From an uncultured delta proteobacterium (GTDB taxonomy: Bacteria > Desulfobacterota > Syntrophorhabdia > Syntrophorhabdales > WCHB1-27), in NCBI GenBank assembly GCA_963810935.1, contig CAWEPK010000016.1, positions 96,001-160,000 on the forward strand: a stretch of 64,000 bases of DNA, read 5' to 3'. Made by a program: the position numbers and the translations under genes. The notes beneath the pieces were generated by a model. That model searched no databases and was not told the DNA's origin. It was given only the letters and a program-made list of their open reading frames with translations. How positions within the stretch are numbered: the first letter of the stretch is position 1; each line of letters begins with the position of its first letter. Below, piece after piece: positions 21,835 to 39,662 of the stretch.

Positions 21835-23595
21835 ATGGCGTACGATGCGACAAAAATGGCAGACTGGCAGATTTCCGAGGCTGCTGAAGGGAAAATGAAG
21901 TCGATCTGGCAGTTGGGCGACGAAATGGGGCTCAAGAAAGAGGAGATCCAGCCCTACGGCCGGATAGGTAAGGTCGATTTCATGAAAGTCATCGAACGGC
22001 TGAAGGACAAGCCGGACGGCAAGTACATAGAAGTCACGGCCATTACTCCGACCCCCCTGGGCGAAGGGAAGACGACCGTTTCTATGGGCCTTGTCGAGGG
22101 TATGGGCAAGAGGGGCTGGAACGTAGGCGGCGCCATCCGTCAGCCTTCGGGCGGCCCGACGATGAACGTCAAGGGAAGCGCGGCCGGCGGCGGCAACGCG
22201 CAGGCAATCCCTCTGACTGAGTTTTCTCTCGGCCTCACAGGCGACATAAACAACATTATGAACGCCCACAACCTCGCCATGGTCGCGATGACGTCGCGCA
22301 TGCAGCACGAGAGGAATTACTCGGACGCCGAGCTCGCGAAGAGGAAGCTGAAGAGACTCGATATCGACCCGAAGAACATCCAGATGGGCTGGATCATGGA
22401 CTTCTGCGCCCAGTCGCTCAGGAACATCGTGATCGGCCTGGGCGGCAAGATGGACGGCTACCTCATGCAGTCCCGCTTCGACATAGCGGTCAGCTCCGAG
22501 GTTATGGCGATACTCGCAATCATCCGGGACCTTGCGGACCTCCGCGAAAGACTCGGCAAGATAACCGTCGCATATGACAGGACCGGCAAGCCGGTAACCT
22601 GTAACGACCTCGAAGTGGCCGGCGCCATGACCGCCTTTATGAGGGAGAGCGTCAACCCGACGATCCTCCAGTCCGTCGAGGGGCAGCCTGTCCTCGTCCA
22701 TGCCGGCCCGTTCGCGAACATCGCAGTCGGCCAGTCCTCCATCATAGCCGACCGTGTGGCACTCAAGCTCTTCGATTATAACGTTACGGAGAGTGGGTTC
22801 GCCGCAGACATCGGGTTCGAGAAGTTCTGGAACGTCAAGTCGAGGATCAGCGGCCTGAAACCCAACGTATCGGTCCTCACGACCACGATCCGCGCCCTCA
22901 AGATGCACGGCGGCGGACCGAGGGTTGCCCCGGGCCTCCCGCTGCCCGAAGAGTACAAGAAGGAAAACCTGGGACTCCTCGAAAAAGGCGCGGCCAACAT
23001 GGTCCACCACATAAAGACCATCAAGCAGTCGGGGATGAAGCCCGTCGTCTGCATCAACTGGTTCCACACGGACACGAAGGACGAGATCGCCATGCTGCGG
23101 AAGATCGCTGAAGCCGAAGGCGCCCGCGTGGCCTTATCGACCCACTGGCTGAACGGTGGCGACGGCGCACTCGAGCTTGCCGACGCAGTCCATGACGCGT
23201 GCGAAGAAAAGTCGGATTTCAAGTTCCTTTATCCCCTCGAAATGCCTCTCCGCCAGAGGGTCGAAATGGTGGCGAAGAACGTTTACGGCGCGGACGGCGT
23301 CTCCTGGTCGCCCGAGGCGGAAGCCAAAGCCAAGGCCTTCGAGGCAGACCCCGAAAAGAGAGACTACTACACGATGATGGTCAAGACGCACCTGAGTCTC
23401 TCCCACGACCCGAACCTGAAGGGCGTGCCGAAGGGCTGGGTGCTGCCGGTGAGGGACGTCCTTATCTTCTCCGGCGCCAAGTTCCTCTGCCCCGTGACCG
23501 GCGCGATCAGCCTCATGCCCGGCACGAGCTCCGACCCCGCGTTCAGAAGGATCGACGTGGACGTCAAGACGGGCAAAGTAACGGGTATGTTCTAA
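21835..23595 (+). CDS. fhs: Formate-tetrahydrofolate ligase
   Basis: [44 protein letters not shown]-terminal LMPG. Confidence 0.97.
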
Positions 23596-23701: not shown

Positions 23702-24469
23702 ATGGCAAGAGTGGCGGCGCCTGAGATTTTCGCCTTTGCCGGCAAAGGGGGGGTGGGCAAGACTACCGTCAGCGGCATGCTTATTCGCTACCTGGTGGAA
23801 AGGCGCAAGGACGGCCCCGTGCTCGCCGTGGACGCCGACCCCAACGCTAACCTGAACGAGGTCCTTGGCATACGCTCATACGCTACGATAGGTGAAGCGC
23901 GGGAGATGATGAAAGAGGCTGTGCCTTCCGGCATGACCAAAGAAACCTGGATGGAGCTGAAGGTGCATGAGTCCCTTGTCGAAAGCCGGGGGTTCGACCT
24001 CCTGGTGATGGGAAGGCCCGAAGGACAGGGTTGTTACTGCGCGGCCAACACGCTGGTCAAAAAGCACATCGATATCCTCAAAGACAACTATTTTTACATA
24101 GTGGTGGACAATGAGGCGGGCATGGAGCACATGAGCAGGCTCGTTACCCAGGACGTGGACCACCTGTTCGTAATCTCCGATGCGACTTCAAGGGGCCTTT
24201 TGACCGCCCGTAGGATACTGGAGCTTGCGGGGGAGCTCGATCTGCGGATCGGCTGTAAGCACACAATAGTCAATCGAGTGGGGCCGGGGCACGAGGGGCT
24301 GGCCCGGTTGGCCGCAGAAAGGGGCGTTGAGGTGAACGGCATCATCCGCGACGACCCGTCGCTTTTTGCCATGGATGCGGAGGGCGGCAACGTGTTCTCG
24401 ATAGAGAACGGCGTGGCCCTTCACGACGCTTACGATGTTTTTGAAAAAATCCTGAAGGGAAAGGAGTAA
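23702..24469 (+). CDS. cooC: CODH/ACS nickel-insertion ATPase (CooC/AcsF family)
   Basis: AGKGGVGKTT, DADPN, GCYC, DNEAGMEH. Confidence 0.9.
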   Translation: MARVAAPEIFAFAGKGGVGKTTVSGMLIRYLVERRKDGPVLAVDADPNANLNEVLGIRSYATIGEAREMMKEAVPSGMTKETWMELKVHESLVESRGFDLLVMGRPEGQGCYCAANTLVKKHIDILKDNYFYIVVDNEAGMEHMSRLVTQDVDHLFVISDATSRGLLTARRILELAGELDLRIGCKHTIVNRVGPGHEGLARLAAERGVEVNGIIRDDPSLFAMDAEGGNVFSIENGVALHDAYDVFEKILKGKE

Positions 24470-24471
24470 AC

Positions 24472-25359
24472 ATGGCTGCAACTATTATAAGCGGAACCGC
24501 CGTAGCGGCTCAGATAAGGGAAGAGATCAAGAAAGACGTGGATGAGCTCAAGGCGAAGCATAACCTGACTCCAGGGCTTGTCACCATCCTTGTCGGGGAA
24601 AACCCTGCCTCGGTGAGCTATGTCACTGCGAAGCAGAAGACATCGCACGACCTCGGCTTCTATTCGATACAGGACAACCAGCCCGGGGACATCACCGAAG
24701 AGGCGCTCCTGGCCCTTATCGACAGGTACAACAAGGACCCTAAAATTCATGGTATACTTGTTCAGCTTCCCCTGCCGAAGCACGTGAATGAGACGAAAGT
24801 GCTGTACGCCATCGACCCGGATAAGGACGTCGATGCGTTTCATCCCGTCAATGTCGGCAAGCTCGTTATAGGGGAGGCCAATTATTATCCGTGCACTCCG
24901 TACGGTATCCAGCAGCTCCTGGTGAGGAGCGGAGTCAAGACGGACGGCGCGGAGGTTGTTGTCGTGGGCAGGAGCAACATCGTCGGCAAGCCAATCGCCA
25001 ACATGCTTCTCCAGAAGGCAAAAGGGGCCAATGCGACGGTCACCATTTGCCACACGGCGACGAAGGACATGGCCTTCCATACGAAACGGGCGGACATACT
25101 GATAGTCGCCGCGGGCAGGCCGAAGGCGATCACGGGCGACATGGTGAAGGAAGGAGTAGTGGTTATAGACGTAGGCGTCAACCGCATCGGCATGACGCCG
25201 GAAGGCAAGGCGAAGCTGGCCGGAGACGTGGATTTCGAGTCGGTTAAAGAGAAAGCTTCCTTCATCACACCGGTCCCCGGAGGCGTGGGCCCCATGACCA
25301 TCACCATGCTCATGCTTAACACAGTCAAGGCTGCGAAGCTTTTTGGGGGAATAAAGTAA
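24472..25359 (+). CDS. folD: Methylene-THF dehydrogenase/methenyl-THF cyclohydrolase
   Basis: YxxxK, HGILVQLPLP, KDVD, PCTP, GRSNIVGKP, TPVPGGVGPMT. Confidence 0.97.
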   Translation: MAATIISGTAVAAQIREEIKKDVDELKAKHNLTPGLVTILVGENPASVSYVTAKQKTSHDLGFYSIQDNQPGDITEEALLALIDRYNKDPKIHGILVQLPLPKHVNETKVLYAIDPDKDVDAFHPVNVGKLVIGEANYYPCTPYGIQQLLVRSGVKTDGAEVVVVGRSNIVGKPIANMLLQKAKGANATVTICHTATKDMAFHTKRADILIVAAGRPKAITGDMVKEGVVVIDVGVNRIGMTPEGKAKLAGDVDFESVKEKASFITPVPGGVGPMTITMLMLNTVKAAKLFGGIK

Positions 25360-25793: not shown

Positions 25794-26735
25794 ATGGCTT
25801 TAACGATACCTACGATCAGCTACACAGGTAAGATCAAGGAAGTGACATTAGGCAGCGGCACCTCTTCCGTTACTCTCGGAGGAGAGGCATGTTACCCCTT
25901 CTATACCTTCGAGGGGGCCATGCCCCGTGCGCCCCAGATAGCCTTTGAGGTATGGGACGCCAAGCCGGAAGACTGGCCGGAGTGGGCCGTAGAGCCGTAT
26001 AAAGACGTCATCTCCGACCCGGTTGCCTGGGCGAAGAAGGCAGTTGATGTCTACAAGGCTGAGATGGTCGCCCTGCTCCTCAAGAGCGCAGACCCGAACG
26101 GCGCGAACCGGGACGCCGAGGCCGTTGTTGCAACGGTCAAGGCGGTTGCGGACGCAGTTTCCGTTCCGCTCATCGTCTGGGGCTGCGCGAACGACGAGAA
26201 GGACGCAATCATGCTCCGGCGCGTAGCGGAGGTCTGCGAAGGCAAGAACCTCGCCATCGGCCCCGTGACCGATAAAAACTACAAACAGATAGGGGCCATG
26301 GCCATTGGCTACAACCACGTGGTTATCGCATCCACGCCTATCGACGTCAACCTGGCGAAGCAGCTTAACATCCTCCTCGGCAACCTTGGTGTGCAGGATA
26401 ACCGGCTCCTGATCGACCCGACGACAGGCGGCCTGGGCTACGGCCTCGAATATTCCTATTCGGTGATGGAGCGCGACCGTATGGCCGCCCTCACCCAGGA
26501 AGACGTGAAGCTCCAGACGCCCATCATCTGCAACCTCGGGAACGAGGTATGGAAGACGAAAGAGGCCAAAACCAGGACAGAAGATAATCCCAAGCTCGGC
26601 GACGCGAAGAAAAGGGCCGTCCTTATGGAGTCGGTCGCTGCGATGACGCTCGCCATGGCGGGCGCGGACCTGCTTATCATGAGACACCCTGAATCCATCG
26701 CCTATGCGAGACAGATGTTCAAGGAATTAACGTAA
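25794..26735 (+). CDS. acsD: Corrinoid iron-sulfur protein small subunit (AcsD/CdhD)
   Basis: TIM-barrel CFeSP-small motifs DVNLAKQLN, IDPTTGGLGYGLEYSYS, GADLLIMRHP. Confidence 0.95.
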   Translation: MALTIPTISYTGKIKEVTLGSGTSSVTLGGEACYPFYTFEGAMPRAPQIAFEVWDAKPEDWPEWAVEPYKDVISDPVAWAKKAVDVYKAEMVALLLKSADPNGANRDAEAVVATVKAVADAVSVPLIVWGCANDEKDAIMLRRVAEVCEGKNLAIGPVTDKNYKQIGAMAIGYNHVVIASTPIDVNLAKQLNILLGNLGVQDNRLLIDPTTGGLGYGLEYSYSVMERDRMAALTQEDVKLQTPIICNLGNEVWKTKEAKTRTEDNPKLGDAKKRAVLMESVAAMTLAMAGADLLIMRHPESIAYARQMFKELT

Positions 26736-26745
26736 GGGGGAAACC

Positions 26746-28692
26746 ATGTCGGAAGAAAAGATACGGAGTATAGATAAAGCGACAATCGAGCTTCTGGACA
26801 AGGCGGAAAGAGAGAAGATCTCAACCGCCTTCTTCCGGGCTGAAGATTTGAAGCCCTGTCCCATAGGCGTGGAAGAGAGCTGCTGCAAGATATGCGCGAT
26901 GGGACCGTGCAGGATGCCCAAGCCGAAGAAAGACGACGGAAAGAAGAGAATGGGCGTCTGCGGCGCCACCATCGAGACCGTAGTCGCCAGAAACTTCGCG
27001 CGTAAAGTGGCCGGCGGCTGTGCAGCCCACTCCGACCACGCCCGCGAGGTCGTAGAGACCTTCATCAAGGCGGCCAAGGGCGAGGCCCAGGGCTTCCAGA
27101 TCAAGGATGAAATGAAGCTCCAGGAAGTCGCCCTCGATTTCGGCGTGCCGACCGAGGGTAGGGAGCCGAACGATATCGCCCTGGAAATAGGCGAGAAGGC
27201 CCTTTCGGAGTTCGGCAGGCAGCACGGTGAGGCCGTATACGTCAAGAAGGCCCCCCTCAAGAGACAGGATATCTGGCGGAAGCAAGGCGTAGTCCCCAGG
27301 GGCATCGACCGGGAAGTGGTCGAAGTGATGCACAGGACGCATATGGGCGTGGACCAGGACTACAGGCACATTATGCAGCAGGCCACGCGCTGCGCGCTGG
27401 CGGACGGCTGGTCGGGCTCCATGATCTCGACTGACCTCCAGGACATCATGTTCGGCACGCCTGTGCCGGTAGTGGGCACCTTCAACCTGGGTGTCCTGAA
27501 GGAAGACCAGGTCAACGTCATCATCCACGGACATGAGCCGCTCCTTCCGGAGCTTATGGTTGTCGCGTCCCGCGACCCGGAGATCAAGAAAGAAGTGGAA
27601 AAGGTCGGCGCGAAGGGCATCAACCTTGCCGGCATGTGCTGCTCGGCCAACGAGGTGCTGATGCGTCACGGCGTGCCTGTCGCAGGCAACTTCCTTCAGC
27701 AGGAGCTGGCGCTCGTAACGGGCGCAGTCGAGCTGATGTCGGTCGATGTCCAGTGCGAGATGCAGGGTCTGGCCGACGTCGCCCAGTGCTTCCACACAAA
27801 GCTGATTACGACGTCCGACAGGGCGAAGATGGAAGGCGCCGAGCACTATGAGTTCACCCCGGAGACGGGTCTCGACACTGCAAAGAAGCTGCTGAAGCTC
27901 GCCATAGCCAATTACCCGAACCGGCGTCACAACGTTACGATACCGCAGTATTCGGCGGACGGTGTCGTCGGCTTCTCCCACGAGACGATCAACTACCTGC
28001 TGGGCGGCCTCTTCCGCGCGAGCTACAAGCCGCTCAACGACAACATAATCAACGGCCGCATCAGGGGAGTGGCGGGCGTCGTCGGGTGCAACAACCCGAG
28101 GACCCCTCACGACCAGGGCCATATAGAGATGGTTAAGGAGCTCCTGAAGAACGACGTTGTCGTCCTCACGACGGGCTGCTCCGCAATGGCCTGCGGAAAG
28201 GCCGGCCTGCTCACGCACGAAGCCTCAAAGAAATACTGCGGTCCGGGTCTGGCTGAAGTCTGCGAGACGGTAGGCATACCGCCGGTCCTCCATATGGGCT
28301 CTTGCGTAGACAACTCACGCATCCTGATCGCCGCTACGGCGCTTGTCAAGGAAGGGGGCCTCGGCGATGACATTTCCGACCTGCCTGCGGCGGGCGCGGC
28401 GCCAGAGTGGATGAGCGAGAAGGCCATATCGATCGGCCAGTACTTCGTCGCCTCCGGCGTCTACACGGTCTTTGGCGCCACTTTCCCCAGCTTCGGCAGC
28501 GAGATATTCACGAAGCACCTCTTCGAGGAGCACGAGGACCTGTATAAAGGCATGTGGGCCTTCGAGGTGGACCCGGTAAAGGCCGCCCGTATGATGATCG
28601 CCCATATCGATAAGAAGAGGAAGGCGCTCGGCCTCGACAAGGGCAAAGAGAGGGTGCTGTTCGATATGGCCATGCGCAGGGCCATCGAGTAA
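26746..28692 (+). CDS. cooS: Anaerobic Ni,Fe CO dehydrogenase catalytic subunit (CooS/AcsA)
   Basis: CCKICAMGPC; C-cluster ligands HGHEP, MCCSANE, DVQC, GCNN, TGC, GSCVDN; SEKA. Confidence 0.97.
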   Translation: MSEEKIRSIDKATIELLDKAEREKISTAFFRAEDLKPCPIGVEESCCKICAMGPCRMPKPKKDDGKKRMGVCGATIETVVARNFARKVAGGCAAHSDHAREVVETFIKAAKGEAQGFQIKDEMKLQEVALDFGVPTEGREPNDIALEIGEKALSEFGRQHGEAVYVKKAPLKRQDIWRKQGVVPRGIDREVVEVMHRTHMGVDQDYRHIMQQATRCALADGWSGSMISTDLQDIMFGTPVPVVGTFNLGVLKEDQVNVIIHGHEPLLPELMVVASRDPEIKKEVEKVGAKGINLAGMCCSANEVLMRHGVPVAGNFLQQELALVTGAVELMSVDVQCEMQGLADVAQCFHTKLITTSDRAKMEGAEHYEFTPETGLDTAKKLLKLAIANYPNRRHNVTIPQYSADGVVGFSHETINYLLGGLFRASYKPLNDNIINGRIRGVAGVVGCNNPRTPHDQGHIEMVKELLKNDVVVLTTGCSAMACGKAGLLTHEASKKYCGPGLAEVCETVGIPPVLHMGSCVDNSRILIAATALVKEGGLGDDISDLPAAGAAPEWMSEKAISIGQYFVASGVYTVFGATFPSFGSEIFTKHLFEEHEDLYKGMWAFEVDPVKAARMMIAHIDKKRKALGLDKGKERVLFDMAMRRAIE

Positions 28693-28739: not shown

Positions 28740-30944
28740 ATGTCAAAGATCATTTGTTCTGCGGCCATAAGAGGGGCGCAGAAGATATTCGATAGGGGCG
28801 AGGCCACGTACAAGGCCACCCTCGCAAAATACGGGCCGGACCAGGAAATAGGCTTTCCCAACACCGCCTACTATCTCCCCATCATTTACTCCATGACCGG
28901 GATGCCGGTAGCCAAGCTGGGCGACATGAAGAAGGTCTTCGATCTCTGCAGGAAGCTCATCCCGGCGCCTGTCAGGGAAACGAACCCTCTGCCTTACCTC
29001 GCCCCCACCCTCGACGCGGGCATGGCAACGTTCTTCGTCGAAGAGATGGTTGAGGCGATCAAGTATCTGGAGACCCCGAACCTTTACGTCAACGGGGAGG
29101 ACCCGATTGATGGGAACATCTGGCTGGGAGCGGCCTCGGACCTCATCTTCAGGAAGAGGGGCGTCGAGTTCGTGGACGGCACCGCGCCTGGCTTCGCAGC
29201 CATCGTGGGCGCTGCGCCCGATTCCCAGACAGCCGCGAAGATCGCGCTGGAGCTCCAGGAGAAGAACCTCTATGTCTTCATGGCGGCGGAAAACAACGGC
29301 AAGAGGTTCGCGGAGCAGCTCGTAGAGGCGGGCGTGCAGATCGGCTGGCCGACGCGGCTGGTCTCCTTCGGCCCGGACATCCACCAGGCCGTATTCGCAA
29401 TCGGCTTCGCGTGCCGCGTTGCAATGGCCTTCGGCGGCATCAAGCCGGGAGACTTCAGAAAGGTCCTCATATACAATAAGGACAGGACATACGCCTTCGT
29501 CATGGCCCTTGGGGACGTGACTGACGAATGGTACGCCAATGCGGCCGGCTGCCTTAACTGGGGCTTTCCGACCATCGCGGACACGCCGATCCCCGAGGCG
29601 CTGCCGACGGGCATCTGCACGTACGAGCACGTCGTCTCGAATATCCCGCATGCGAACATCGTGGAAAAGGCGGTCGAGGTCAGGGGCCTTAAGGTGCAGG
29701 TCACGAAGGTCCCTATCTCCGTCTCCTACGGCCCCGCCTTCGAGGGCGAGCGCGTGCGCGGCGAGGACATCTATCTGGAAGTTGGCGGCGGCAAGACGGT
29801 CGCCGTCGAGTGGACCACTTCAGCCAACATGGAGGACGTTGAAGACGGCCGCGTACAGGTTTTCGGGCCGGAGCTTAAAGACATCACCCCCGGCACGCGC
29901 CTCCACTTCGCCATGGTCGCGGAGGTGGCGGGCAGGAACTTCCAGGAGGATTTCGAGCCGATCCTGGAGAGGCAGAACCACCACCTCATCAATCAGGCCC
30001 AGGGCATCATGCACATAGGTCAGCGCGATATCGCCTGGATCCGCATATCCAAGCAGGCGGTCGAGAAGGGCTTTACGCTGGCCGACATCGGAAAGATCAT
30101 CCATGCCAAGTACCATCAGGACTTTGGCGCGATATTCGACAAGGTCCAGGTGAAGATCTACACGGAAGAGGCGAAGGTCCAGGAAGTGCTCGCGAAGGCG
30201 CGCGCCTCGTACAAGCACAGGGATGACCGCGTCGAGAACATGACCGACGAGACGACGGACACCTTTTACTCCTGCACGCTCTGCCAGTCCTTCGCGCCGA
30301 ACCACGTCTGCGTGGTCGCACCGGAGAGGACGGGTCTGTGCGGGGCTTACAACTGGCTCGACTGCAAAGCCTCCTACGAGATCAACCCTGAGGGGCCGAA
30401 CCAGCCTATAGCCAAGGGCGAGGTACTCGACGCCAGGTACGGCCAATTCAAGGGCGCGAACGACTTCGTCTTCAAGGCATCGAGACAGAAGGTCTCCAAC
30501 GTAAGCTTTTACAGCCTCATGGTCGATCCTATGACGACCTGCGGCTGCTGCGAGTGCATCGCAGCCGTTCTCCCCATGGCGAACGGCATTATGACGGTCG
30601 ACCGCGACTATACAGGGATGACCCCGTGCGGCATGAAGTTCACTACACTTGCCGGCTCCGCGGGCGGCGGCGCGCAGGCGCCGGGCTTCCTGGGACACAG
30701 CAAGTACAACGTCACGCAGAGGAAGTTCCTTAAAGGCGACGGCGGCCTCCTGCGGCTCGTGTGGATGCCCAAGAAGCTGAAAGAAGACCTGCGCGAGCGG
30801 CTGCAGAAGCGCGCGGAAGAGCTGGGCGTGCCCGATCTGCTCGACAGGATCGCTGACGAGACGGTAGCGACGACGGAAGAGGAAGTCATCGCATACTGCA
30901 CTGAGAAGGGGCATCCGGCGCTGACAATGGAATCGATTATGTAG
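28740..30944 (+). CDS. acsB: Acetyl-CoA synthase (AcsB/CdhC)
   Basis: FPNTAYYLP, CTLCQSFAPNHVC, GLCG, A-cluster TCGCCEC. Confidence 0.97.
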   Translation: MSKIICSAAIRGAQKIFDRGEATYKATLAKYGPDQEIGFPNTAYYLPIIYSMTGMPVAKLGDMKKVFDLCRKLIPAPVRETNPLPYLAPTLDAGMATFFVEEMVEAIKYLETPNLYVNGEDPIDGNIWLGAASDLIFRKRGVEFVDGTAPGFAAIVGAAPDSQTAAKIALELQEKNLYVFMAAENNGKRFAEQLVEAGVQIGWPTRLVSFGPDIHQAVFAIGFACRVAMAFGGIKPGDFRKVLIYNKDRTYAFVMALGDVTDEWYANAAGCLNWGFPTIADTPIPEALPTGICTYEHVVSNIPHANIVEKAVEVRGLKVQVTKVPISVSYGPAFEGERVRGEDIYLEVGGGKTVAVEWTTSANMEDVEDGRVQVFGPELKDITPGTRLHFAMVAEVAGRNFQEDFEPILERQNHHLINQAQGIMHIGQRDIAWIRISKQAVEKGFTLADIGKIIHAKYHQDFGAIFDKVQVKIYTEEAKVQEVLAKARASYKHRDDRVENMTDETTDTFYSCTLCQSFAPNHVCVVAPERTGLCGAYNWLDCKASYEINPEGPNQPIAKGEVLDARYGQFKGANDFVFKASRQKVSNVSFYSLMVDPMTTCGCCECIAAVLPMANGIMTVDRDYTGMTPCGMKFTTLAGSAGGGAQAPGFLGHSKYNVTQRKFLKGDGGLLRLVWMPKKLKEDLRERLQKRAEELGVPDLLDRIADETVATTEEEVIAYCTEKGHPALTMESIM

Positions 30945-30955
30945 AAAGGGCAAGG

Positions 30956-31110
30956 CTGCCAGGCAGCGCGTACGCGCTTTAATAGGGAAGATGGTGTAAT
31001 TCCATCACGGACCCGCCGCTGTAAGGGGGGACGATGGCGCAAGATCCACTGGGTAATCCCGGGAAGGTGCGCCGGAGGATGATCCCCGAGTCAGAAGACC
31101 CGCCTGGCAG
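30956..31110 (+). ncRNA. Cobalamin (B12) riboswitch between acsB and acsC
   Basis: AATAGGGAA, GGTGTAATTCC, CCCGCCGCTGTAA, CCACTG...GGGAAGG, B12 box GAGTCAGAAGACCCGCC. Perfect P1 CTGCCAGGC/GCCTGGCAG. Confidence 0.92.
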
Positions 31111-31168
31111 TTCTTACAGACACCCTCCTCGAGGCCTGGGAGAGGAAGCTTAAAAAAAGGAGACTGCT

Positions 31169-32503
31169 ATGGGACTCACAGGTATCCAGATATTCAAGCT
31201 TCTTCCCAAGACCAACTGCGGGGAATGCGGTTACCCCACCTGCCTTGCCTTTGCCATGGCGCTCGCTGCCGGCAAGGCCGAGCTGGAAAAATGCCCGACC
31301 CTCCCGGATGCGGCTAAAGAGCAGCTTGGAGAGGCGAGCGCGCCCCCCATCAGGCAACTCACGATAGGGACGGGCGAATACGCAGTGAAGGTCGGCGGAG
31401 AGACGGTCATGTTCCGCCATGAGAAGACCTTCTTTAATAAGCCCGGTCTGGCCGTCCTTATTACCGACGGGATGGACGACGCGGAAGTGGCCCGCAAACT
31501 CGGTAAAATGGCCGAGCTGCAGTACGAGCGCGTCGGCCTCAACCTGAGGCCGGAGCTGGTTGCCGTTAAAGAAGCAGGCAACAAGACCCGCTTCCTGGAA
31601 ATCGTGAAAAAAGTGGCGGCGACGCCATACAGCATTATCCTTATGTCTTTCGACCCGGCCGCCATGAAAGAGGCGCTCGATATCGCCAAGGACAAAAAGC
31701 CGCTCATTTACGCAGCCACCAAGGACAACACGGACGCGATGGGCGCCTTGGCGAAAGAGTACGCCTGCCCCCTGGCAGTCAAGGGTGAGGGCCTGGAGGC
31801 TCTGGCCGCCCTGTCCGAGAAGCTCATCGGTATGGGCGTCAAGGACCTGATTCTCGACTCCGGCACCAGGACCGTGAAGGAAGCCTTCTCCGACCAGATC
31901 ATGATGAGGAGGGCCGCGCTCCAGTCGCGCTTCAAACCCTTGGGCTTCCCGACTATCGCTCTGCCCTGCGAGATGACGGACGACGTAATGAAAGAGACGC
32001 TGATCGCCTCCCTGTTCATCGCAAAATACGGCGCGATCATAGTCCTGTCCGACTTCGCGGGCGAGAACGTTTTCCCGCTCCTCCTGGAAAGGCTCAACAT
32101 TTACACGGACCCGCAGCGCCCGATGACAACGGATCAGGGCATCTACCCCATCAACAACCCGGACGCGTCCTCGCCGGTCCTTGTGACCTGCAACTTCTCG
32201 CTGACGTACTTCATAGTCACCGGTGAGATAGAGAACTCGCGGGTGCCCACGTGGCTCTGCGTTATGGACACGGAAGGCCTCTCGGTCATGACTGCCTGGG
32301 CCGCCGGCAAGTTTGTCGCCGACACGGTCGGACCCTTCATCAAGAAGTCCGGCATCGCGGACAAGGTCAACCATAAGAAGCTGATAATCCCGGGTTACGC
32401 GGCCGGTATCCTGGGCGACCTCGAAGAAGAGCTGCCCGGGTGGGAGATAACGGTCGGCCCGAGGGAAGCGGCGCACTTACCGGCATTTTTGAAGAACAGG
32501 TGA
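31169..32503 (+). CDS. acsC: Corrinoid iron-sulfur protein large subunit (AcsC/CdhE)
   Basis: LPKTNCGECGYPTCLAFA, FRHEK, IYTDPQRP, TAWAAGKF, GPREA. Confidence 0.97.
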   Translation: MGLTGIQIFKLLPKTNCGECGYPTCLAFAMALAAGKAELEKCPTLPDAAKEQLGEASAPPIRQLTIGTGEYAVKVGGETVMFRHEKTFFNKPGLAVLITDGMDDAEVARKLGKMAELQYERVGLNLRPELVAVKEAGNKTRFLEIVKKVAATPYSIILMSFDPAAMKEALDIAKDKKPLIYAATKDNTDAMGALAKEYACPLAVKGEGLEALAALSEKLIGMGVKDLILDSGTRTVKEAFSDQIMMRRAALQSRFKPLGFPTIALPCEMTDDVMKETLIASLFIAKYGAIIVLSDFAGENVFPLLLERLNIYTDPQRPMTTDQGIYPINNPDASSPVLVTCNFSLTYFIVTGEIENSRVPTWLCVMDTEGLSVMTAWAAGKFVADTVGPFIKKSGIADKVNHKKLIIPGYAAGILGDLEEELPGWEITVGPREAAHLPAFLKNR

Positions 32504-32529: not shown

Positions 32530-33405
32530 ATGCTGATCATTGGTGAGAACCTGAACGTCATAAATAAGAAGATCGGCCAGGCATTCAAGGACAGAGACCC
32601 GAAGCCCATCCAGGAGATGGCCGAGGCGGAGACGAAGGCCGGCGTCGATATCATCGACCTCAATCTCGGTCCCGCGCGCAAGGCAGGCGCCGAGCTGATG
32701 GCGTTCGTCGTCAAGACCGTGCAGGAAGTCACGGACACCACGCTTTGCCTCGATACGACGAACATCGAGGCGATAGAGGCGGGACTCGCGGCCTGTAAGA
32801 ACCGGCCGCTCATAAACTCCATCTCGGCGAGGCCGGAGAGGATGGAGGCGCTGATCCCCATCGCCAAGAAGTACAACGCCCCGTTCATTGCCCTCTGCCT
32901 CGGCGTAGACGGCATACCGCGCGACGCGAACGAGAGGGGTCTCCTTGTCGCGGAGCACCTTGCCAAGGCAGCAGAGTACAGCGTGTCGGAAGAAGACATG
33001 TGGATTGACCCCATAGTCCTTCCGATCAATACACAGCAGATACAGGTGCAGGGCTGCACCGAGTTCATGATGATGCTCGGCGACATCGCCCCGACCTGCA
33101 AGTCGACGTGCGGCCTTTCCAACATCTCGAACGGCGCGCCGGAGCACCTGCGCCCGGTCCTGAACAGGTGCTACGCCATTTTCCTGAAGCGTTACGGCAT
33201 GTACTCGGCCATCGCGGATGCGTTCGACATGGAGCTGCAGGCAATAGCCAAGGGCAAGATGGCCGATATGGAAGCCCTGGTATACAAGGTCATGGACGGC
33301 GAGGCGCTTCCTTCGAGCCTGTCGAAGGAGGAAACGGTCTACGTCAAGACCACACGGGTCCTCCTGGGTCAGACGCTTTACTCCGACTCGTGGCTCGAGC
33401 TTTAA
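32530..33405 (+). CDS. acsE: Methyl-THF:CFeSP methyltransferase (AcsE)
   Basis: Pterin-binding barrel IIGENLN, IDLN, LINSIS, GLSNISNG. SD GGAGG before ATG 32530. Confidence 0.92.
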   Translation: MLIIGENLNVINKKIGQAFKDRDPKPIQEMAEAETKAGVDIIDLNLGPARKAGAELMAFVVKTVQEVTDTTLCLDTTNIEAIEAGLAACKNRPLINSISARPERMEALIPIAKKYNAPFIALCLGVDGIPRDANERGLLVAEHLAKAAEYSVSEEDMWIDPIVLPINTQQIQVQGCTEFMMMLGDIAPTCKSTCGLSNISNGAPEHLRPVLNRCYAIFLKRYGMYSAIADAFDMELQAIAKGKMADMEALVYKVMDGEALPSSLSKEETVYVKTTRVLLGQTLYSDSWLEL

Positions 33406-33414
33406 CGGTGCAAC

Positions 33415-33942
33415 ATGGATGACGCGAGCTTTCTGAAAGAGATAGAGCGGGAGAGCAAAGAGCAGGTGTCGTCCTGCTACCAGTGCTACCGGTGCACGAA
33501 CGGCTGCCCGGTCGTGCAGGAGATGGACATCCTGCCTCATCGGGTTATCCGCTACATAATGCTCGGCGAGAAGGAGAAGGTGCTCTCCTGCAAGACCATC
33601 TGGTCCTGCCTCCAGTGCTACACGTGCAGCGTGCGCTGTCCCAACGATATCCACGTGGGCCATGTGTTCGATACAGCGCGGAAGATCGCGGTCCGGGAAG
33701 GGAAGGCGACGTCCGACGTCTGGACGTTCGACGAGCTTTTCCTCGACAGCGTCAAGAAGCACGGCAGGCTGTATGAGCTGGGGTCCGTCATGTCCTACAA
33801 GATAAAGAAGAAGGATTTCTTCTCCGACACCAAAATGGGCATGGATATGATGAAAAAGGGGAGGATGGGCCTCTTTCCGCACAACATAAAAGACAGGGCC
33901 GGCTTGAAAAAGGCACTGGAGCGCATAGGCCGCAAGGCCTAA
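33415..33942 (+). CDS. hdrC: Heterodisulfide reductase subunit C-like
   Basis: CYQCYRCTNGCP and CLQCYTCSVRCP; GRLYE. Confidence 0.92.
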   Translation: MDDASFLKEIERESKEQVSSCYQCYRCTNGCPVVQEMDILPHRVIRYIMLGEKEKVLSCKTIWSCLQCYTCSVRCPNDIHVGHVFDTARKIAVREGKATSDVWTFDELFLDSVKKHGRLYELGSVMSYKIKKKDFFSDTKMGMDMMKKGRMGLFPHNIKDRAGLKKALERIGRKA

Positions 33943-34040
33943 AGGATGTGTTAGAATATATAGCTTAAGACAAAAGACCTATCGCGGCCGGGTTCGGTCG
34001 AAGGGCAGCGAGACCGGCCGCCAAAACAAGGTGGTTCTAT

Positions 34041-34898
34041 ATGGTGACGCTTACGTACTATCCCGGTTGCTCCCTCAAGACGGGGAGCAAGTTTTACGAG
34101 ACCTCGATCCGGAAGGTGTTCAACAACTACGGCATCGAGCTCAAGGAGCTTAATGACTGGTCATGCTGCGGGGCGTCGGCCGCCCATACAGTCGACGAGG
34201 AGGTCGCCCATGTCCTCGTGGCGCGCAACCTCGCAATCGCCGAGAAGGAAGAGCTGAACTTTTTCGCCCCCTGCTCGGCCTGCTACAGCCGCTCTAAAAT
34301 CACCAACGATACCATACGGAACGACGCCGCCTTGCAGGACGAGGTTAACGGCGCCATCGCGCCCCTTCAATGCACGGGCTCGTTAGAGGTGAAGAACATC
34401 GTCGAGGTGCTCGACGATCACGTGGGCGTCTCGGCCATTGCCGCAAAGCGCCGTTTCGACCTGTCGGGGCTGCGGGTGGTCCCCTATTACGGCTGTGTGC
34501 TTACGCGGCTCATGCGGGTAAAGCCGTACGATGACAGGGAAAACCCGACGAGCATGGACGACCTGATAGAGGCATGCGGCGCGGCCGTCCTGCGCTGGCC
34601 CTTCAAGATGGAATGCTGCGGCGCGTCGAAGACGTTGACCGACAAGGGTATGACGGTCCGCCTTTCGGAACGCATAATGGAAAGAGCGATCAAATCCGGC
34701 GCGGACGCGATAGTAACGCCGTGCCCCCTATGCCAGATGAACCTCGACCTGCTGCCTTCGCTCGGAAGCATAAAACCTGCCATACCTATCCTGTTCCTGT
34801 CTGAGGTTTTCGAGCTTGCCCTATATGGCAGTATGGTGGGCATGGCCTCTCACCTCGTGGCCGCAGACGGGGTACTGAAGAAAATCAAGGAGGTATGA
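34041..34898 (+). CDS. hdrB: Heterodisulfide reductase subunit B-like
   Basis: Two CCG domains: YYPGC..CCG..CSAC and YYGC..CCG..CPLC. Confidence 0.93.
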   Translation: MVTLTYYPGCSLKTGSKFYETSIRKVFNNYGIELKELNDWSCCGASAAHTVDEEVAHVLVARNLAIAEKEELNFFAPCSACYSRSKITNDTIRNDAALQDEVNGAIAPLQCTGSLEVKNIVEVLDDHVGVSAIAAKRRFDLSGLRVVPYYGCVLTRLMRVKPYDDRENPTSMDDLIEACGAAVLRWPFKMECCGASKTLTDKGMTVRLSERIMERAIKSGADAIVTPCPLCQMNLDLLPSLGSIKPAIPILFLSEVFELALYGSMVGMASHLVAADGVLKKIKEV

Positions 34899-34902
34899 GG
34901 CC

Positions 34903-35253
34903 ATGGAGAGGCAAGAGGCCCTCGAATATATCAAGGCCCAGGACCCGGAAAGCGGCGAGCGCCTCAAGCGCTTGATAGAACGGAAGTCCCTGCTCCTTGA
35001 CAAGAACATCTACGGCGAGCGCTTCACGGAGCGCCAGTTCGACATGGTCTTCGACCCGCTTTTGCGCTCTGCCTACGAGAAGGCACGGATACTCGAGCTC
35101 CTGAGCGGCGGGGACCGTACGGTTGCATCGCTGGCGCATGACCTGTCGATGGGCAAGGAACGCGTCTTCAACCACCTGAAGGACCTGATCAAGAAGAACA
35201 TGGTTGAGATCGCCGGTTTCAAAGACAGGCACCCCGTTTTCAAAAAGAGGTAA
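34903..35253 (+). CDS. Small winged-helix-like protein
   Basis: SD AGGAGG. C-terminal RILELL...TVASLAHDLSMGKERVFNHLKDL resembles an ArsR-type wHTH. Translationally coupled to hdrL (TAATG). Confidence 0.75.
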   Translation: MERQEALEYIKAQDPESGERLKRLIERKSLLLDKNIYGERFTERQFDMVFDPLLRSAYEKARILELLSGGDRTVASLAHDLSMGKERVFNHLKDLIKKNMVEIAGFKDRHPVFKKR

Positions 35254-38200
35254 TGAGGATTATGGATAAGGTCGGCAAGGTACTGGTCATCGGCGGCGGC
35301 ATCGGGGGTATGGAAGCTTCCCTCAACCTCGTAGAGGCCGGCTTCAAGGTCTACCTGGTGGACGAGAAGGCGAACATCGGCGGAAAGATGGCGCAGCTCG
35401 ACAAGACGTTCCCGACGAACGACTGCTCCATGTGCATTATGGCCCCGAAGCTGGTCGAGGTGGGCCGTAACGTAAACGTCGAGCTGCTCATGAGCAGCGA
35501 GGTGGTGGCCCTCGATGGCGAGCCGGGTAATTTCACGGCCACGATCAAGAGGCGTCCGCGAAGGATCGTGAAGGAGAAGTGCACTTCGTGCGGACTCTGC
35601 GCGCCTTACTGCCCGCTGGAAGTACCGGCGGACTACAACGAAGGGCTTTCGCGGAGAAGCGGCGCTTTCATCAACTTCCCCCAGGCCATCCCCTCCACTT
35701 ATTCGATAGACCGGGAGATACCGCCCTGCGTCAACAGGTGCCCGATCAACCTTAACGCGCGTGACTACGTCGGCCTTATAGCGGAAGGCCGTTTCCTCGA
35801 AGCCCTCGACGTCATACGGGAAAGGCTGCCGTTCCCGGCTACGATAGGCCGTATCTGCAACCACCCTTGCGAGGATGTTTGCCTGAGGGGCGAGAAGGTC
35901 GATCAGCCGCTTGCCATCTGCGCGCTGAAGCGCTTCGTAGCGGACTACGAAGTAGGGCGGCGCGAGATGCCCCTGCCGGAAGTCGGAGAAGACAAAGGGA
36001 AGAAAGTCGCGGTAGTCGGCGGCGGCCCGTCGGGCATGGAGTGCGCCATCGAGCTGCGGAAGGCGGGTTACGGCGTCACGATTTTCGAAGCCCACGAAAA
36101 ACTGGGCGGCATGCTTTACTGGGGCATCCCCGCGTACCGCCTGCCCAAGGACGTGCTCGACCGCGAGACCGCAATCGTAGGGCGCCTGGGCATAGACGTA
36201 AGGTACAATACCCGCGTCGGCAAGGATATCTCCCTTAAGGACATTAAGGCTTCCTTTGACGCGGTATACGTTGGCTGCGGCGCGCAGGGCGGCCGGAAGA
36301 TCGGCCTTGAGAACGAAGACGCTGAAGGCGTCATGACCGGCGTCGAGTTCCTCCGCCTGTCGAACGAGAAGCAGCCCATCGATGTCCATGGCAAAGTCGT
36401 CGTGGTAGGCGGCGGAAACGTCGCGGTAGACGTTGCCCTGACCGTGCGCCGTATGGGTGCGGCCGAAGTCCACATGGTCTGCCTCGAAAAATCGGAGGAA
36501 ATGCCGGCCAGCAAATGGGAGATCGAGCAGACCATCGAAGAGGGCGTAAAGGTCCATCCTTCGTGGGGGCCTCACACGATAAAGACAGAGAACGGGCACG
36601 TCACGGCGATGGAGTTCAAGCGGTGCACGAGCGTCTTCGATGAGCTGGGCCGGTTCAACCCGTCGTACGACGACAACATAAGGAAGGTCTACGGCGCGGA
36701 CATGGTGATCCTCGCCATCGGCCAGTCGACCGAGACCGAATTCCTGAAAGAGCTGCCGGAAGTGGAGCTTATGCGTGGCGGCTGGATAAAGGCGGACCCC
36801 CTTTCCCTGGAGACCGGGGTTACAGGGGTATTCGCGGGTGGCGACATCGTGACGGGTCCCAAGATGGCTATCGATGCAGTCAGCCAGGGACGCGAGGCCG
36901 CGGAGTCGATTAAGCGCTATCTCGAAGGCAGGGACCTGAAAGAAGGGCGCATGGCGAAGGAGACGGCGCTGGTCGTGGACGTCCCGGAAGATATCCGGCG
37001 GCGGCCGCGCGCGGTTGTCCCTTCGATGCCCGTCGAGGCCAGGAAAGGCTTCGAGGAAGTAGACCTCGCGTTCGACGAGGCTGTTGCGAAGCTGGAAGCC
37101 GAGCGCTGCCTCTCGTGCAGGCGCTGCCTCGGCTGCAAGCTCTGTGAGGAGGCCTGCAAGCCGGGCGCCATCGACTATCTGCAGGGGCCTGAAGAGGTTA
37201 AGGTCAACGTAGGCAGCGTGGTGCTCGCCACGGGCCTTGAAGAATACGACGCGAGCCTTCGGCCGGAGCTTGGCTACGGGATGTACCCGAACGTAGTCAC
37301 GAGCACGGAGTTCGAGAGGATACTCTCGGCCACCGGGCCCACGTCCAGCATGGTAATGCGCCCCTCTGACGGGAAACTTCCCGTAAAGGTGGCGTGGCTC
37401 CAGTGTGTAGGCAGCAGGGACAAGACCAACGAGTACTGCTCGTCCGTCTGCTGCATGTACGCCACGAAAGAGGCGATCATAGCCAGGGAGCACCAGAACG
37501 ACATAGAGCCCACCATTTTCTACATGGACATCCGGGCCTTCGGCAAGGGGTTCGAGCAGTACTACGAGAGGGCGAAACACGAGCACGGTGTACGCTACGT
37601 GAAATCGTCCATATCGCGCATACTGGAAGACCCCGACACATCCGACCTGGAAGTCGTCTACACCGATGAGGACGGACAGCTTAAATCTGAGATTTTCGAC
37701 ATGGCGGTCCTGTCGGTCGGCATGAGGCCCGCACGGAACCTGCCGGCCCTGGCCCGGGCCCTCGGCATCGGCCTCAACGAATACGGTTTCGTCAAGTCGG
37801 CCCCGAGCAACCCCCTGGTCACCACGCGGGAAGGCATCTACGTGAGCGGCGCGTCGGAATCGCCCAAGGATATCCCCGAGACCGTGACGCAGGCATCGGG
37901 CGCAGCGTGCGAGGCCGCCTCCATCATAGCGGAGGCGCGCGGCAAGGACCTCGTAGTGATGCCCTTGCCGGAAGAGCGGGAGGTCGCACAGAGCGACGAG
38001 CCGAGGATCGGCGTCTTTATATGCCACTGCGGCGTCAACATAGGCAGTGTGGTCAACGTGCCGGCCGTGAAGGAATACGCTCGTACGTTGCCCAACGTCG
38101 TCGTCGCGGACGAGAACCTCTTCACCTGCTCGCAGGATACGCAGGAAAAGATGAAGCAGTTCATCCAGGAGCAAAACCTTAATAGAGTGATCGTGGCGTC

Positions 38201-39662
38201 CTGCTCGCCAAGGACGCACGAGTTCCTGTTCCGGACGACCATACGCGAGGCGGGCCTCAACAAGTACCTCTTCGAGATGGCCAATATCCGCGACCAGTGC
38301 TCCTGGGTCCATATGAAAGACAAGGAGAACGCCACCGAAAAGGCGAAAACGCTCGTCAGGATGGCGGTAGCGAACGCCAACTACATCAAGCCCCTCAAAG
38401 AGGTCTCCATAGGCGTCAACAAGACAGCGCTGGTCGTCGGCGGCGGCCTTGCCGGCATGACGGCGGCCCTCAAGTTCGCGCGGCAGAACTTCGAGGTCTA
38501 TCTCGCCGAAAAGACGGCGGAGCTCGGCGGCAACCTGCGCCACATATTCACGACGCTCGACGGCGTTGACGTCAGGGAATTCATGGCGAACCTTACGGAG
38601 CAGGTGGTAAGTCACCCCCTGATACACGTACTGACGGAGACGGAAGTGGTCGAGCATGCCGGCTTCAAGGGTAATTTCGAATCCGGCCTGCGGGACATCA
38701 GGGCGAACAAGGTGACCGCGCTCAAGCACGGCATCGTCGTGGTGGCTACGGGCGGCGAGGAATGGAAGCCAAAAGGCCAGTACGCCTACGGAGAGGACGA
38801 GCGGGTCATGACGCAGATGGAGCTGGAGGCGCTCATTGCCGGCAGCAAGGCGCCAAAGGCCGGCCGCGTTACCATGATCCAGTGCGTAGGGTCGAGGAAC
38901 GACGAGCGGCCTTACTGTAGCCGTGTCTGCTGTTCCAACGCGGTAAAGAACGCCTTGCAGCTCAAGCACGCCTCGCCGGACCTCGACGTGGTTATCCTGT
39001 TCAGAGACATAATGACATACGGTTTCCTGGAGAAGTATTACCTGGCCGCGCGCCGGGCGGGGGTGAGGTTCGTCCGCTACGAGAAGGAGAGGCCGCCGGT
39101 CCTCGCAAAGAGCAACGGCAAGCTGACGCTCACCTGCTACGACCCGGCGATCATGGAAGACGTTACGTTCGATACGGACCGGCTGGTCCTTTCCGCGGCC
39201 ACGATACCCATAGAGAACGAGGCGCTGGCCAACCTCCTCAAAGTCCCGAGGACTGCGGAAGGGTTCTTCCTTGAGGCGCATATGAAGCTGCGCCCGGTCG
39301 ATTTCGCTTCAGACGGCATCTACCTGTGCGGCCTCGCCCATTCGCCCAAGAACATACGGGAGACCATCACGCAGGCGGAGGCGGCCGTCGCCAAGGCGTG
39401 CACGCTCCTGTCCAAGGAGCAGATCCTCGTCGGCGGCGTGGTAGCCGAAGTCCAGGGAGACAAGTGCGCTGCCTGCCTCACGTGCGTCAGGGCATGTCCT
39501 TACGGCGTGCCGGTCATAAACGCCAAGGGCGAGGCGGAGATCGATATCAGTAAGTGCAAAGGGTGCGGGAGCTGTGTGGCCGAATGCCCAGCCAAGGCGA
39601 TAGACCTGATGCACTACCGCGACGTCCAGATAATCGAAAAGTCGGGCGCCTTAGTCTCGTAA
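35253..39662 (+). CDS. hdrA: Large HdrA-like flavoprotein (HdrL type): tandem HdrA modules with inserted GltD/NfnB-like NAD(P)H module
   Basis: GGGIGG, DKTFPTNDCSMC; insert PPCVNRCP..GRICNHPCEDVC..GGGPSG..GGGNVAVD; CVGSRD..YCSSVCCMY; second module CHCG..SCSPRTH..GGGLAG..YCSRVCC; C-terminal ferredoxin. Start may be 35262. Confidence 0.93.
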   Translation: MRIMDKVGKVLVIGGGIGGMEASLNLVEAGFKVYLVDEKANIGGKMAQLDKTFPTNDCSMCIMAPKLVEVGRNVNVELLMSSEVVALDGEPGNFTATIKRRPRRIVKEKCTSCGLCAPYCPLEVPADYNEGLSRRSGAFINFPQAIPSTYSIDREIPPCVNRCPINLNARDYVGLIAEGRFLEALDVIRERLPFPATIGRICNHPCEDVCLRGEKVDQPLAICALKRFVADYEVGRREMPLPEVGEDKGKKVAVVGGGPSGMECAIELRKAGYGVTIFEAHEKLGGMLYWGIPAYRLPKDVLDRETAIVGRLGIDVRYNTRVGKDISLKDIKASFDAVYVGCGAQGGRKIGLENEDAEGVMTGVEFLRLSNEKQPIDVHGKVVVVGGGNVAVDVALTVRRMGAAEVHMVCLEKSEEMPASKWEIEQTIEEGVKVHPSWGPHTIKTENGHVTAMEFKRCTSVFDELGRFNPSYDDNIRKVYGADMVILAIGQSTETEFLKELPEVELMRGGWIKADPLSLETGVTGVFAGGDIVTGPKMAIDAVSQGREAAESIKRYLEGRDLKEGRMAKETALVVDVPEDIRRRPRAVVPSMPVEARKGFEEVDLAFDEAVAKLEAERCLSCRRCLGCKLCEEACKPGAIDYLQGPEEVKVNVGSVVLATGLEEYDASLRPELGYGMYPNVVTSTEFERILSATGPTSSMVMRPSDGKLPVKVAWLQCVGSRDKTNEYCSSVCCMYATKEAIIAREHQNDIEPTIFYMDIRAFGKGFEQYYERAKHEHGVRYVKSSISRILEDPDTSDLEVVYTDEDGQLKSEIFDMAVLSVGMRPARNLPALARALGIGLNEYGFVKSAPSNPLVTTREGIYVSGASESPKDIPETVTQASGAACEAASIIAEARGKDLVVMPLPEEREVAQSDEPRIGVFICHCGVNIGSVVNVPAVKEYARTLPNVVVADENLFTCSQDTQEKMKQFIQEQNLNRVIVASCSPRTHEFLFRTTIREAGLNKYLFEMANIRDQCSWVHMKDKENATEKAKTLVRMAVANANYIKPLKEVSIGVNKTALVVGGGLAGMTAALKFARQNFEVYLAEKTAELGGNLRHIFTTLDGVDVREFMANLTEQVVSHPLIHVLTETEVVEHAGFKGNFESGLRDIRANKVTALKHGIVVVATGGEEWKPKGQYAYGEDERVMTQMELEALIAGSKAPKAGRVTMIQCVGSRNDERPYCSRVCCSNAVKNALQLKHASPDLDVVILFRDIMTYGFLEKYYLAARRAGVRFVRYEKERPPVLAKSNGKLTLTCYDPAIMEDVTFDTDRLVLSAATIPIENEALANLLKVPRTAEGFFLEAHMKLRPVDFASDGIYLCGLAHSPKNIRETITQAEAAVAKACTLLSKEQILVGGVVAEVQGDKCAACLTCVRACPYGVPVINAKGEAEIDISKCKGCGSCVAECPAKAIDLMHYRDVQIIEKSGALVS

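Follow-up and report, generated by a model that had tools for sequence, protein, structure and literature searches.

The subject of this analysis is a cobalamin riboswitch located between acsB and acsC, two genes of a Wood-Ljungdahl cluster in the genome of an uncultured delta proteobacterium of the order Syntrophorhabdales (assembly GCA_963810935.1). We studied positions 96,001 to 160,000 of contig CAWEPK010000016.1; this stretch of 64,000 nucleotides (nt) is called the window in the following, and all positions are counted from its first letter. The acsB-acsC element is a genuine cobalamin riboswitch aptamer of full length with a P6 extension, and the gene that follows it encodes AcsC, the corrinoid-carrying subunit. 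Considering all routes together, we regard an ON switch, which would allow expression of acsC when a corrinoid is bound, as the most likely reading, and hold it with moderate confidence. That this ON switch operates by means of the hairpin P13 and a kissing loop is our tentative proposal for its mechanism.

The Rfam scan assigned positions 30944-31121 of the + strand to the family RF00174 (Cobalamin) with a score of 117.8 bits (gathering threshold 31.5) and an E-value of 6.6e-29. The match spans model positions 1-189 of 189 without truncation and is the only Rfam match in the window, which confirms the full B12 aptamer that an original prediction, made from the letters of the sequence, had placed between acsB and acsC. 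Corrinoid sensing is predicted from this family membership. The parts of the aptamer and the linker that follows it are:

30952-30964, + strand: P1 5' strand in the RF00174 alignment (extension AAGG 30952-30955, core CUGCCAGGC 30956-30964)
31011-31015, + strand: L5 loop ACCCG, closed by G31009-G31010/C31016-C31017; the aptamer half of the kissing loop
31089-31104, + strand: B12 box AGUCAGAAGACCCGCC, aligned to the RF00174 consensus
31102-31115, + strand: P1 3' strand (core GCCUGGCAG 31102-31110, U31111 bulged, extension UCUU 31112-31115)
31116-31122, + strand: linker J1/13, ACAGACA, from the orthologue alignment

The core motifs (GGGAA, GCCACUG-like, L4 T-loop) are present: AGUCAGAAGACCCGCC, UCCACUGG and GGUGUAAUUCC match the consensus columns. 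The nine G+C-rich core pairs of P1 contribute -17.7 kcal/mol, and -20.9 kcal/mol are reached with the outer extension of four pairs, which begins 7 nt past the acsB stop codon (TAG, 30942-30944). In a short form from a metagenome (L125:366-631), a C-G pair of the P1 core is replaced by U-A (5' CAGGU, 3' ACCUG); this compensatory change supports P1 as drawn. L5 reads RCCCG in all sequences shown in the orthologue alignments.

P13, the proposed kissing loop and the acsC start

Between the aptamer and acsC, the following features were found:

31123-31145, + strand: P13 hairpin, -7.2 kcal/mol in the kiss-competent register
31123-31129, + strand: P13 5' strand CCCUCCU (alpha), resembling an anti-Shine-Dalgarno (anti-SD) sequence
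31130-31137, + strand: L13 loop CGAGGCCU, starting with CGAGG
31138-31145, + strand: P13 3' strand GGGAG-A-GG, resembling a Shine-Dalgarno (SD) sequence (GGGAGAGG), with no start codon behind it
31146-31157, + strand: A-rich linker AAGCUUAAAAAA, 12 nt, without a pyrimidine tract able to act as anti-SD
31158-31163, + strand: SD of acsC, AGGAGA (GGAG 31159-31162), 6 nt 5' of the ATG at 31169

The original prediction had noticed the motif CTCCT in a local hairpin at 31123-31145 and had taken it for a second anti-SD. The hairpin exists (-7.2 to -7.4 kcal/mol), but we read it as P13/L13, i.e. as the signalling element of the riboswitch and more than a second anti-SD. According to PMC10653944, characterised cobalamin riboswitches signal via a kissing loop between L5 and L13, with P13 as partner; the L5 consensus given there is UCCCG, working kissing pairs are L5 CCG with L13 CGG, and bulged kissing loops are known. 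In the window, four kissing pairs are possible (C31130-G31015, G31131-C31014, G31133-C31013 and G31134-C31012), with A31132 bulged. Across the orthologues L13 begins with CG(N)GG, N being A, C or G, a variation that fits a bulged kiss onto the invariant CCCG. Since L5 does not vary, the kiss itself is beyond the reach of covariation. Loops of the form CG(N)GG are also located 3' of other cobalamin aptamers, among them ones with terminators. P13 is paired in 94.6% of 111 alignment cells from 16 orthologues, compared with 54-70% in slid controls.

The SD begins 13 nt past P13 and is complementary to CUCCU at 31125-31129, within the P13 5' strand; this pairing of alpha with the SD is preserved in 85.4% of the cells of the orthologous platforms. 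These arrangements suggest the following model. With a corrinoid bound, L13 (CGAGG...) would kiss L5 (CCCG) and P13 would be locked shut. The anti-SD CUCCU would then be occupied, its partner being the P13 3' strand GGGAGAGG as an SD look-alike, and the real SD 13 nt further on would stay free. In the absence of ligand P13 could open, its 5' strand would pair with the SD, and in genus g3 L13 would additionally pair with the stretch preceding the SD. No terminator-like or promoter-like site was detected on the + strand between 30500 and 31600, in agreement with the original prediction, which had noted that no U-tailed terminator comes after the aptamer; the sole terminator-like match in this interval is on the - strand inside acsC (shuffle mean 1.0). 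Because there is no terminator, control at translation is most likely. Initiation of acsC translation would be the most likely point of control; acsE and the genes downstream might be affected by polarity.

The logic of this model is clearest in the g3-type orthologues, a set of eight distinct sequences composed of six long forms and two short forms from metagenomes. In all eight, UCUCCU of alpha pairs with AGGAGA of the SD (6 bp), and the L13/3'-strand segment beta, AGGUUGGG, pairs with UCCAAUCU just 5' of the SD over up to 8 bp. Of the 109 cells of the combined sequestor of 12-14 bp, 94.5% are paired (36-59% when slid), and the sequestor cannot form together with P13. The energy model makes this sequestor the ground state and leaves the SD an unpaired probability of 0.00-0.16. 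Forcing P13 into its kiss-competent register carries a penalty of +3.8 to +8.0 kcal/mol for seven of the eight sequences and of +0.8 to +1.1 kcal/mol for L019; the unpaired probability of the SD then becomes 0.58-0.96 in six of them, and 0.11 and 0.22 in the others. From the constrained folding of the orthologues as a whole, rows with the P13 3' strand GGGAA (L010, L014, L017) were excluded, as their constrained energies were artefactual. Because P13 and the sequestor exclude each other, a kiss-locked P13 would imply ON logic in g3. In the long forms, additional hairpin sequence of 60-100 nt sets P13 and the SD apart, and yet their aptamers score 112-119 bits; this favours long-range pairing over steric occlusion. 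These hairpins (L018-L023) are stable modules that differ by species and look like small repeat insertions; a unit resembling CCGGGUACCCGCUUGCGGGUGUCCC is present twice in L019.

The sign of control

Several results weigh against an ON switch built in this way. For the window, the unpaired probability of the SD is 0.40 when the RNA folds freely and 0.39 when P13 is enforced, and for g1 and g2 in general folding predicts no switch, with the SD about 0.40 open; this did not change when g1 and g2 were folded at 15 °C instead of 37 °C. In these two genera P13 and the pairing of alpha with the SD are nearly isoenergetic (-3.5 to +1.6 kcal/mol); in the window P13 is slightly favoured (ΔΔG -1.2 kcal/mol). 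Of 200 dinucleotide shuffles of the window's platform (31116-31189), 191 fold at least as stably as the platform itself (z +1.57), and the minimum free energies of the g3 sequestor are no more stable than those of shuffles (z 0.1-0.3). No compensatory covariation was found in P13, in the alpha:SD helix or in the g3 sequestor: P13 has no pair altered on both sides among the 16 orthologues, and the alpha:SD helix cannot covary as the SD is invariant. The anti-SD-like P13 5' strand also occurs in some terminator-type riboswitches (e.g. L116), so that some match of P13 to the SD is to be expected in any case. Finally, in the published accounts we draw on, all tested cobalamin riboswitches but one repress. 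Seen in the models, the acsC start of the window looks like a constitutively open site, and the weak fold of this region would fit selection that keeps the start open. In the window's genus, for which the predicted effect is small, the switch could act as a weak dimmer, or it might depend on kinetics or on tertiary contacts.

The predominance of repressors is at the same time an argument for a classical OFF switch, in which the B12-docked P13 would hinder loading of the 30S subunit at the acsC start, either because a standby site is blocked or because the SD-like GGGAGAGG, which might help to recruit ribosomes, is hidden. Such a mechanism would agree with the closeness of P13, which in the short forms ends just 13 nt before the SD, and with the start of the window being unstructured by default, as in docking-type riboswitches whose ribosome-binding site (RBS) is open when ligand-free. 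However, the customary architecture of an OFF switch is not apparent, because the SD lies outside P13/L13 and nothing in between pairs with it; RNAalifold, applied to 16 short platforms, detected no conserved helix sequestering the SD and none between P13 and the SD (consensus -6.2 kcal/mol, 9 pairs, P13 not called). Moreover, a steric effect would not be a mechanism shared with the g3 long forms, in which 60-100 nt separate P13 from the SD. Repressing the carrier of a cofactor when this cofactor is plentiful would have no obvious logic, and in a B12 producer the cob/cbi operons would already be repressed by B12. The genome of the window encodes CbiC and CbiD and therefore presumably makes B12. 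Both proteins were found in 3/3 genomes of g1, 3/3 of g2, 2/3 of g3 and 1/1 of g6, small samples of related genomes; in the likewise small sample of genus g5, CbiD was found in 0/2 and CbiC in 1/2. An ON switch is what the gene context favours: the gene under control would be that of the corrinoid carrier, in a B12 producer, and the other four cobalamin riboswitches of the genome have the layout of terminator-type repressors, two of them in front of putative genes for B12 supply. Taken together, we consider an OFF switch unlikely.

The folding results for g1 and g2, where the SD is equally accessible in every state, and the lack of a conserved sequestering helix in the RNAalifold consensus would also be expected if the ligand did not control initiation at all. 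The element might then act on Rho-dependent termination, processing or stability of the acsC-acsE transcript; it might merely uncouple acsC from the translation of acsB, as the insertion breaks a junction of 12-18 nt that would permit translational coupling; or the aptamer might be recent, with little output in g1. The same junction took up unrelated insertions elsewhere, namely a 23S_rRNA_IVP gene and an ORF (open reading frame) resembling helix-turn-helix (HTH) proteins or transposases. Against these variants, aptamer and P13 are kept in four genera and 23 sequences while the adjacent inserted hairpins vary freely, which indicates that selection acts on ligand sensing along with P13; in addition, the g3-type sequestor is conserved. 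Absence of ligand control over initiation is also improbable in our view.

The original prediction had likewise arrived at an ON switch, by a different route: the segment 31107-31115 would exchange its P1 partner for the SD region 31157-31167, and P1, when stabilised by the ligand, would free the SD. The strings on which this idea was based are found where they had been placed (GCCTGGCAG at 31102-31110, GCAGTTCTT at 31107-31115, AAGGAGACTGC at 31157-31167, and the ATG at 31169); GCCTGGCAG is the P1 3' strand in the cmscan alignment, and this strand takes in the candidate anti-SD at 31107-31115. The pairing GCAGUUCUU : AAGGAGACUGC exists (-7.7 kcal/mol for the exact segment of 9 nt), and freeing the P1 3' strand lowered the accessibility of the window's SD from 0.40 to 0.23 in folding. 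Terminating acsB ribosomes should open the outer P1 pairs, which begin so shortly after the stop codon. The proposed self-fold of the P1 5' strand (GCTGC-CAG-GCAGC, 30955-30967) reaches -5.6 kcal/mol in the window, but comprises only three pairs in g2. In g2, two partners of about equal quality are available to CAGUCUU, the outer part of the P1 3' strand, namely AAGACUG of the P1 5' strand and GAGACUG of the SD region, and five of the 23 sequences (L010, L011, L014, L016 and L129; all from g2) beat at least 95% of their shuffles.

For the window itself, the duplex with a longer left arm (31107-31122) has an energy of -9.6 kcal/mol, compared with -7.2 ± 2.6 kcal/mol for 300 dinucleotide shuffles (z -0.95), 19% of which were as good. 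When no ligand is present, the full-length ensemble prefers P1 to the alternative helix by 6.4 kcal/mol; for this reason, the two do not form a bistable pair. The comparison of orthologues, which had been envisaged for this helix, gave a divided result: 73.6% of the cells of the 16 short platforms are paired (31-57% in slid controls), but only two pairs are altered on both sides. The central pair (columns 7-75) is kept in 7 of the 16 sequences only, and in L008 both of its partners are changed to a U.C mismatch, P1 being kept via wobbles. In g6 and in the eight g3-type sequences the pairing is weak or missing altogether, signalling by P1 is not how characterised cobalamin riboswitches work, and part of the complementarity to the SD may stem from a duplication that accompanied the insertion (see below). 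P1 exchange is in our judgement very unlikely as the basis of the switch and a minor rival, which could contribute in g2. The predicted sign stands as the most plausible one, whereas the predicted mechanism is poorly supported; we prefer the kiss-locked P13 for an ON switch.

Distribution and origin of the element

In order to trace the element, the region 30900-31260 of the window was compared by blastn with 60 relatives, and the loci were scanned with Rfam. In the window's family, the aptamer was located between acsB and acsC in all loci of g1 (3/3), g2 (7/7), g6 (1/1) and g3 (6/6), and was absent from genus g5 (3 loci); 17 of the 20 loci scanned thus carry it, with scores of 104-128 bits. 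The neighbouring family f4 was negative (0/9 loci). One scan of metagenomes yielded 24 loci, 10 of them of the acsC type, which raised the total to 23 distinct sequences. The sequencing runs listed as containing the stretch number 19, all of them runs of DNA. Among the best 80 AcsC loci of species-representative genomes, 9 have the element and 71 lack it according to nhmmer. Twenty of these 71 were scanned again with Rfam (0/20 positive), and the remaining 51 were screened by the family-specific nhmmer profile and a B12-box pattern only. A sample of 300 genomes of the phylum contained look-alikes of the aptamer core in 31 genomes; none of these extends into an acsC-type platform, and none of the best 11 look-alike loci adjoins acsB or acsC. 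The genome surveys were confined to the phylum; within this scope, all loci with the element belong to four genera of a single, uncultured family of the Syntrophorhabdales.

The spacer between acsB and acsC measures 224 nt in the window and 224-309 nt in all riboswitch-bearing loci. In the nearest relatives without the element only 12-18 nt separate the acsB stop from the acsC ATG, and the same SD, AAAGGAGAC, is present. Of the 92 loci listed, nearly all have an AGGAG-type SD in front of their acsC gene, those free of a riboswitch included. Because the element-free relatives possess the short junction and the same SD, the element is most simply explained as an insertion of about 215 nt between the acsB stop and a pre-existing acsC SD. 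The insertion would have occurred in an ancestor of a few Syntrophorhabdales genera. The spacer of one g5 genome (116 nt) contained no riboswitch remnant, and only the acsB end was matched.

The 5' flank of the aptamer, AAAGGGCAAGGCUGCC (30945-30964), resembles the SD region AAAGGAGACUGCU (31151-31171), and similar resemblances exist in other genera, some of them with genus-specific flanks. Compared with shuffles, the resemblance reaches ≤0.05 in 6 of the 23 sequences only; with statistics this weak, it may represent a target-site duplication. Insertions seem to have entered the acsB-acsC junction repeatedly. In other lineages it spans 540-607 nt and contains unrelated ORFs (L066:753-1061, also in L028; L077:701-1048; L098), among them a 23S_rRNA_IVP family protein (115 bits) and the HTH/transposase-like ORF mentioned above. 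No Rfam family was detected in L028, L072 or L077.

Operon context and related riboswitches

The + strand of the window holds a complete Wood-Ljungdahl cluster from fhs to a metF-like gene:

21835-23595, + strand: fhs
23702-24469, + strand: cooC-like gene
24472-25359, + strand: folD
25794-26735, + strand: acsD
26746-28692, + strand: acsA
28740-30944, + strand: acsB, CODH/ACS alpha/beta subunit (ACS_CODH_B_C, CdhC, CODH_A_N; NF040764, 1069.8 bits)
31169-32503, + strand: acsC, corrinoid-carrying subunit (Pfam FeS and CdhD; NF003195, 635.7 bits)
32530-33405, + strand: acsE, methyl-tetrahydrofolate:corrinoid/Fe-S protein methyltransferase (Pterin_bind)
33415-39662, + strand: HdrC-, HdrB- and HdrA-like genes
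40779-41699, + strand: metF-like gene

The family matches of acsC bear out that the target is the corrinoid-carrying subunit, which had been pointed out as unusual. The matches of acsE are below the curated cut-offs (NF005719, 229.6 bits versus 259; NF040758, 184.4 versus 370). acsE follows acsC after 26 nt, has its own SD (GGGAGGA) and is probably co-transcribed with acsC. Within 34903-39662, an ORF of 116 amino acids of the ArsR HTH type ends with a stop codon that overlaps the ATG of an ORF of 1469 amino acids. The latter is HdrA-like, lies 3' of the HdrC- and HdrB-like genes and combines several pyridine-nucleotide-disulphide oxidoreductase/FAD domains with 4Fe-4S domains.

The genome contains five RF00174 elements. 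Besides the acsC copy, these are:

C7:97536-97724, - strand: one member of a pair (L002/L003), followed by a hairpin and a U-run
C7:97805-98009, + strand: the other member of this pair, followed by a hairpin and a U-run
C8:771178-771379 (L004:1501-1702): followed by a G+C hairpin and a U-run
C9:349586-349769: followed by a G+C hairpin and a U-run

All five share the aptamer family and an L5 of the form (A/U)CCCG, and two of the other four have P13 loops that begin with (U)CGUGG. In contrast to these four, which have the layout of terminator-type repressors, the acsC copy alone lacks a terminator and is located inside an operon. The two C7 switches point away from each other, one on either strand, with 80 nt between them; one precedes an unnamed ORF of 30 amino acids, the other an ORF that we take to be a CbiM-like membrane protein (cobalt transporter). 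One switch precedes what is presumably a CobU/CobP-like P-loop ORF, upstream of CbiC and CbiD. The C8 switch precedes a cysteine-rich ORF of 98 amino acids (L004:1784-2080) and no obvious B12 gene; the Fer4 matches of this ORF are weak and below the Pfam cut-offs.

That most cobalamin riboswitches repress, as the original prediction had stated, is correct: the only activating corrinoid riboswitch in print according to PMC10653944 is a natural, transcriptional one, cobT of Alkalihalobacillus halodurans, in which P13 excludes a terminator (Procknow et al. 2023, mBio, PMC10653944). The cobT riboswitch, whose best ligand is cobinamide, belongs to the 5' leader of a gene for B12 synthesis (PMC10653944). 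The acsC element resembles it in that a bulged L5-L13 kiss would stabilise P13 and P13 would exclude a blocker, which is clear in the g3-type sequences and proposed for the window. Unlike cobT, it has no terminator, the blocker would be the helix of anti-SD and SD, and it is intercistronic, in front of a subunit of a corrinoid-dependent enzyme whose activation is predicted from the model.

A second group for comparison are E. coli btuB and env8HyCbl, with which the acsC element shares the aptamer, the L5-L13 kiss and the missing terminator, and like which it would be controlled at the RBS; in this type, docking occludes the RBS itself (PMC10907184, PMC10653944). The loops of env8 and of the acsC element are alike in having a bulge and a mismatch. 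In btuB and env8 the RBS is in or next to P13/L13. By contrast, the acsC SD lies outside P13/L13, 13 nt past P13 (80-120 nt in the g3 long forms), and the P13 3' strand is a mere SD look-alike with no start codon. Furthermore, the targets of btuB/env8 switches are B12 uptake genes; the acsC element precedes the corrinoid-binding subunit and is not the leader of a gene for B12 uptake, B12 synthesis or a B12-independent isozyme. In EutX and Rli55 of Enterococcus and Listeria, a riboswitch-terminated small RNA sponges a regulator, and B12 activates the ethanolamine-utilisation genes; PMC11477304 also mentions these systems. Here as there, B12 would control a B12-dependent pathway positively by means of a cobalamin aptamer; unlike the indirect EutX/Rli55 systems, the acsC element would act in cis on the mRNA of a corrinoid protein.

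Full-text literature searches revealed no report of a cobalamin riboswitch in front of acsC or inside an acs operon. The element could well be the first translational, intra-operonic cobalamin riboswitch that activates, driving AcsC and probably AcsE, though we advance this with some reserve. Should it be an ON switch, it would do at the level of translation what cobT, the sole activating corrinoid riboswitch in print, does at that of transcription, and the regulatory sign would flip simply by the landing site of the aptamer-P13 module relative to the SD. The switch would have arisen almost ready-made, by a module of aptamer and P13 landing in front of a strong SD. The loci form a natural series, which leads from junctions without insert (12-18 nt) to short platforms (g1, g2, g6 and the short g3-like forms) and on to the long g3 forms with a strong sequestor. 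The element might also provide building blocks for biosensors that B12 induces at the level of translation.

In textbooks, cobalamin riboswitches appear as repressors of genes for B12 supply; the acsC element is notable for its target and its possible sign. If the proposed model is true, apo-AcsC would be made only when the cofactor is available, separately from the CODH/ACS encoded upstream. A sensor placed before the holder of the corrinoid points to a matching of cofactor to apoenzyme in the Wood-Ljungdahl pathway of these uncultured syntrophs of peat and soil.

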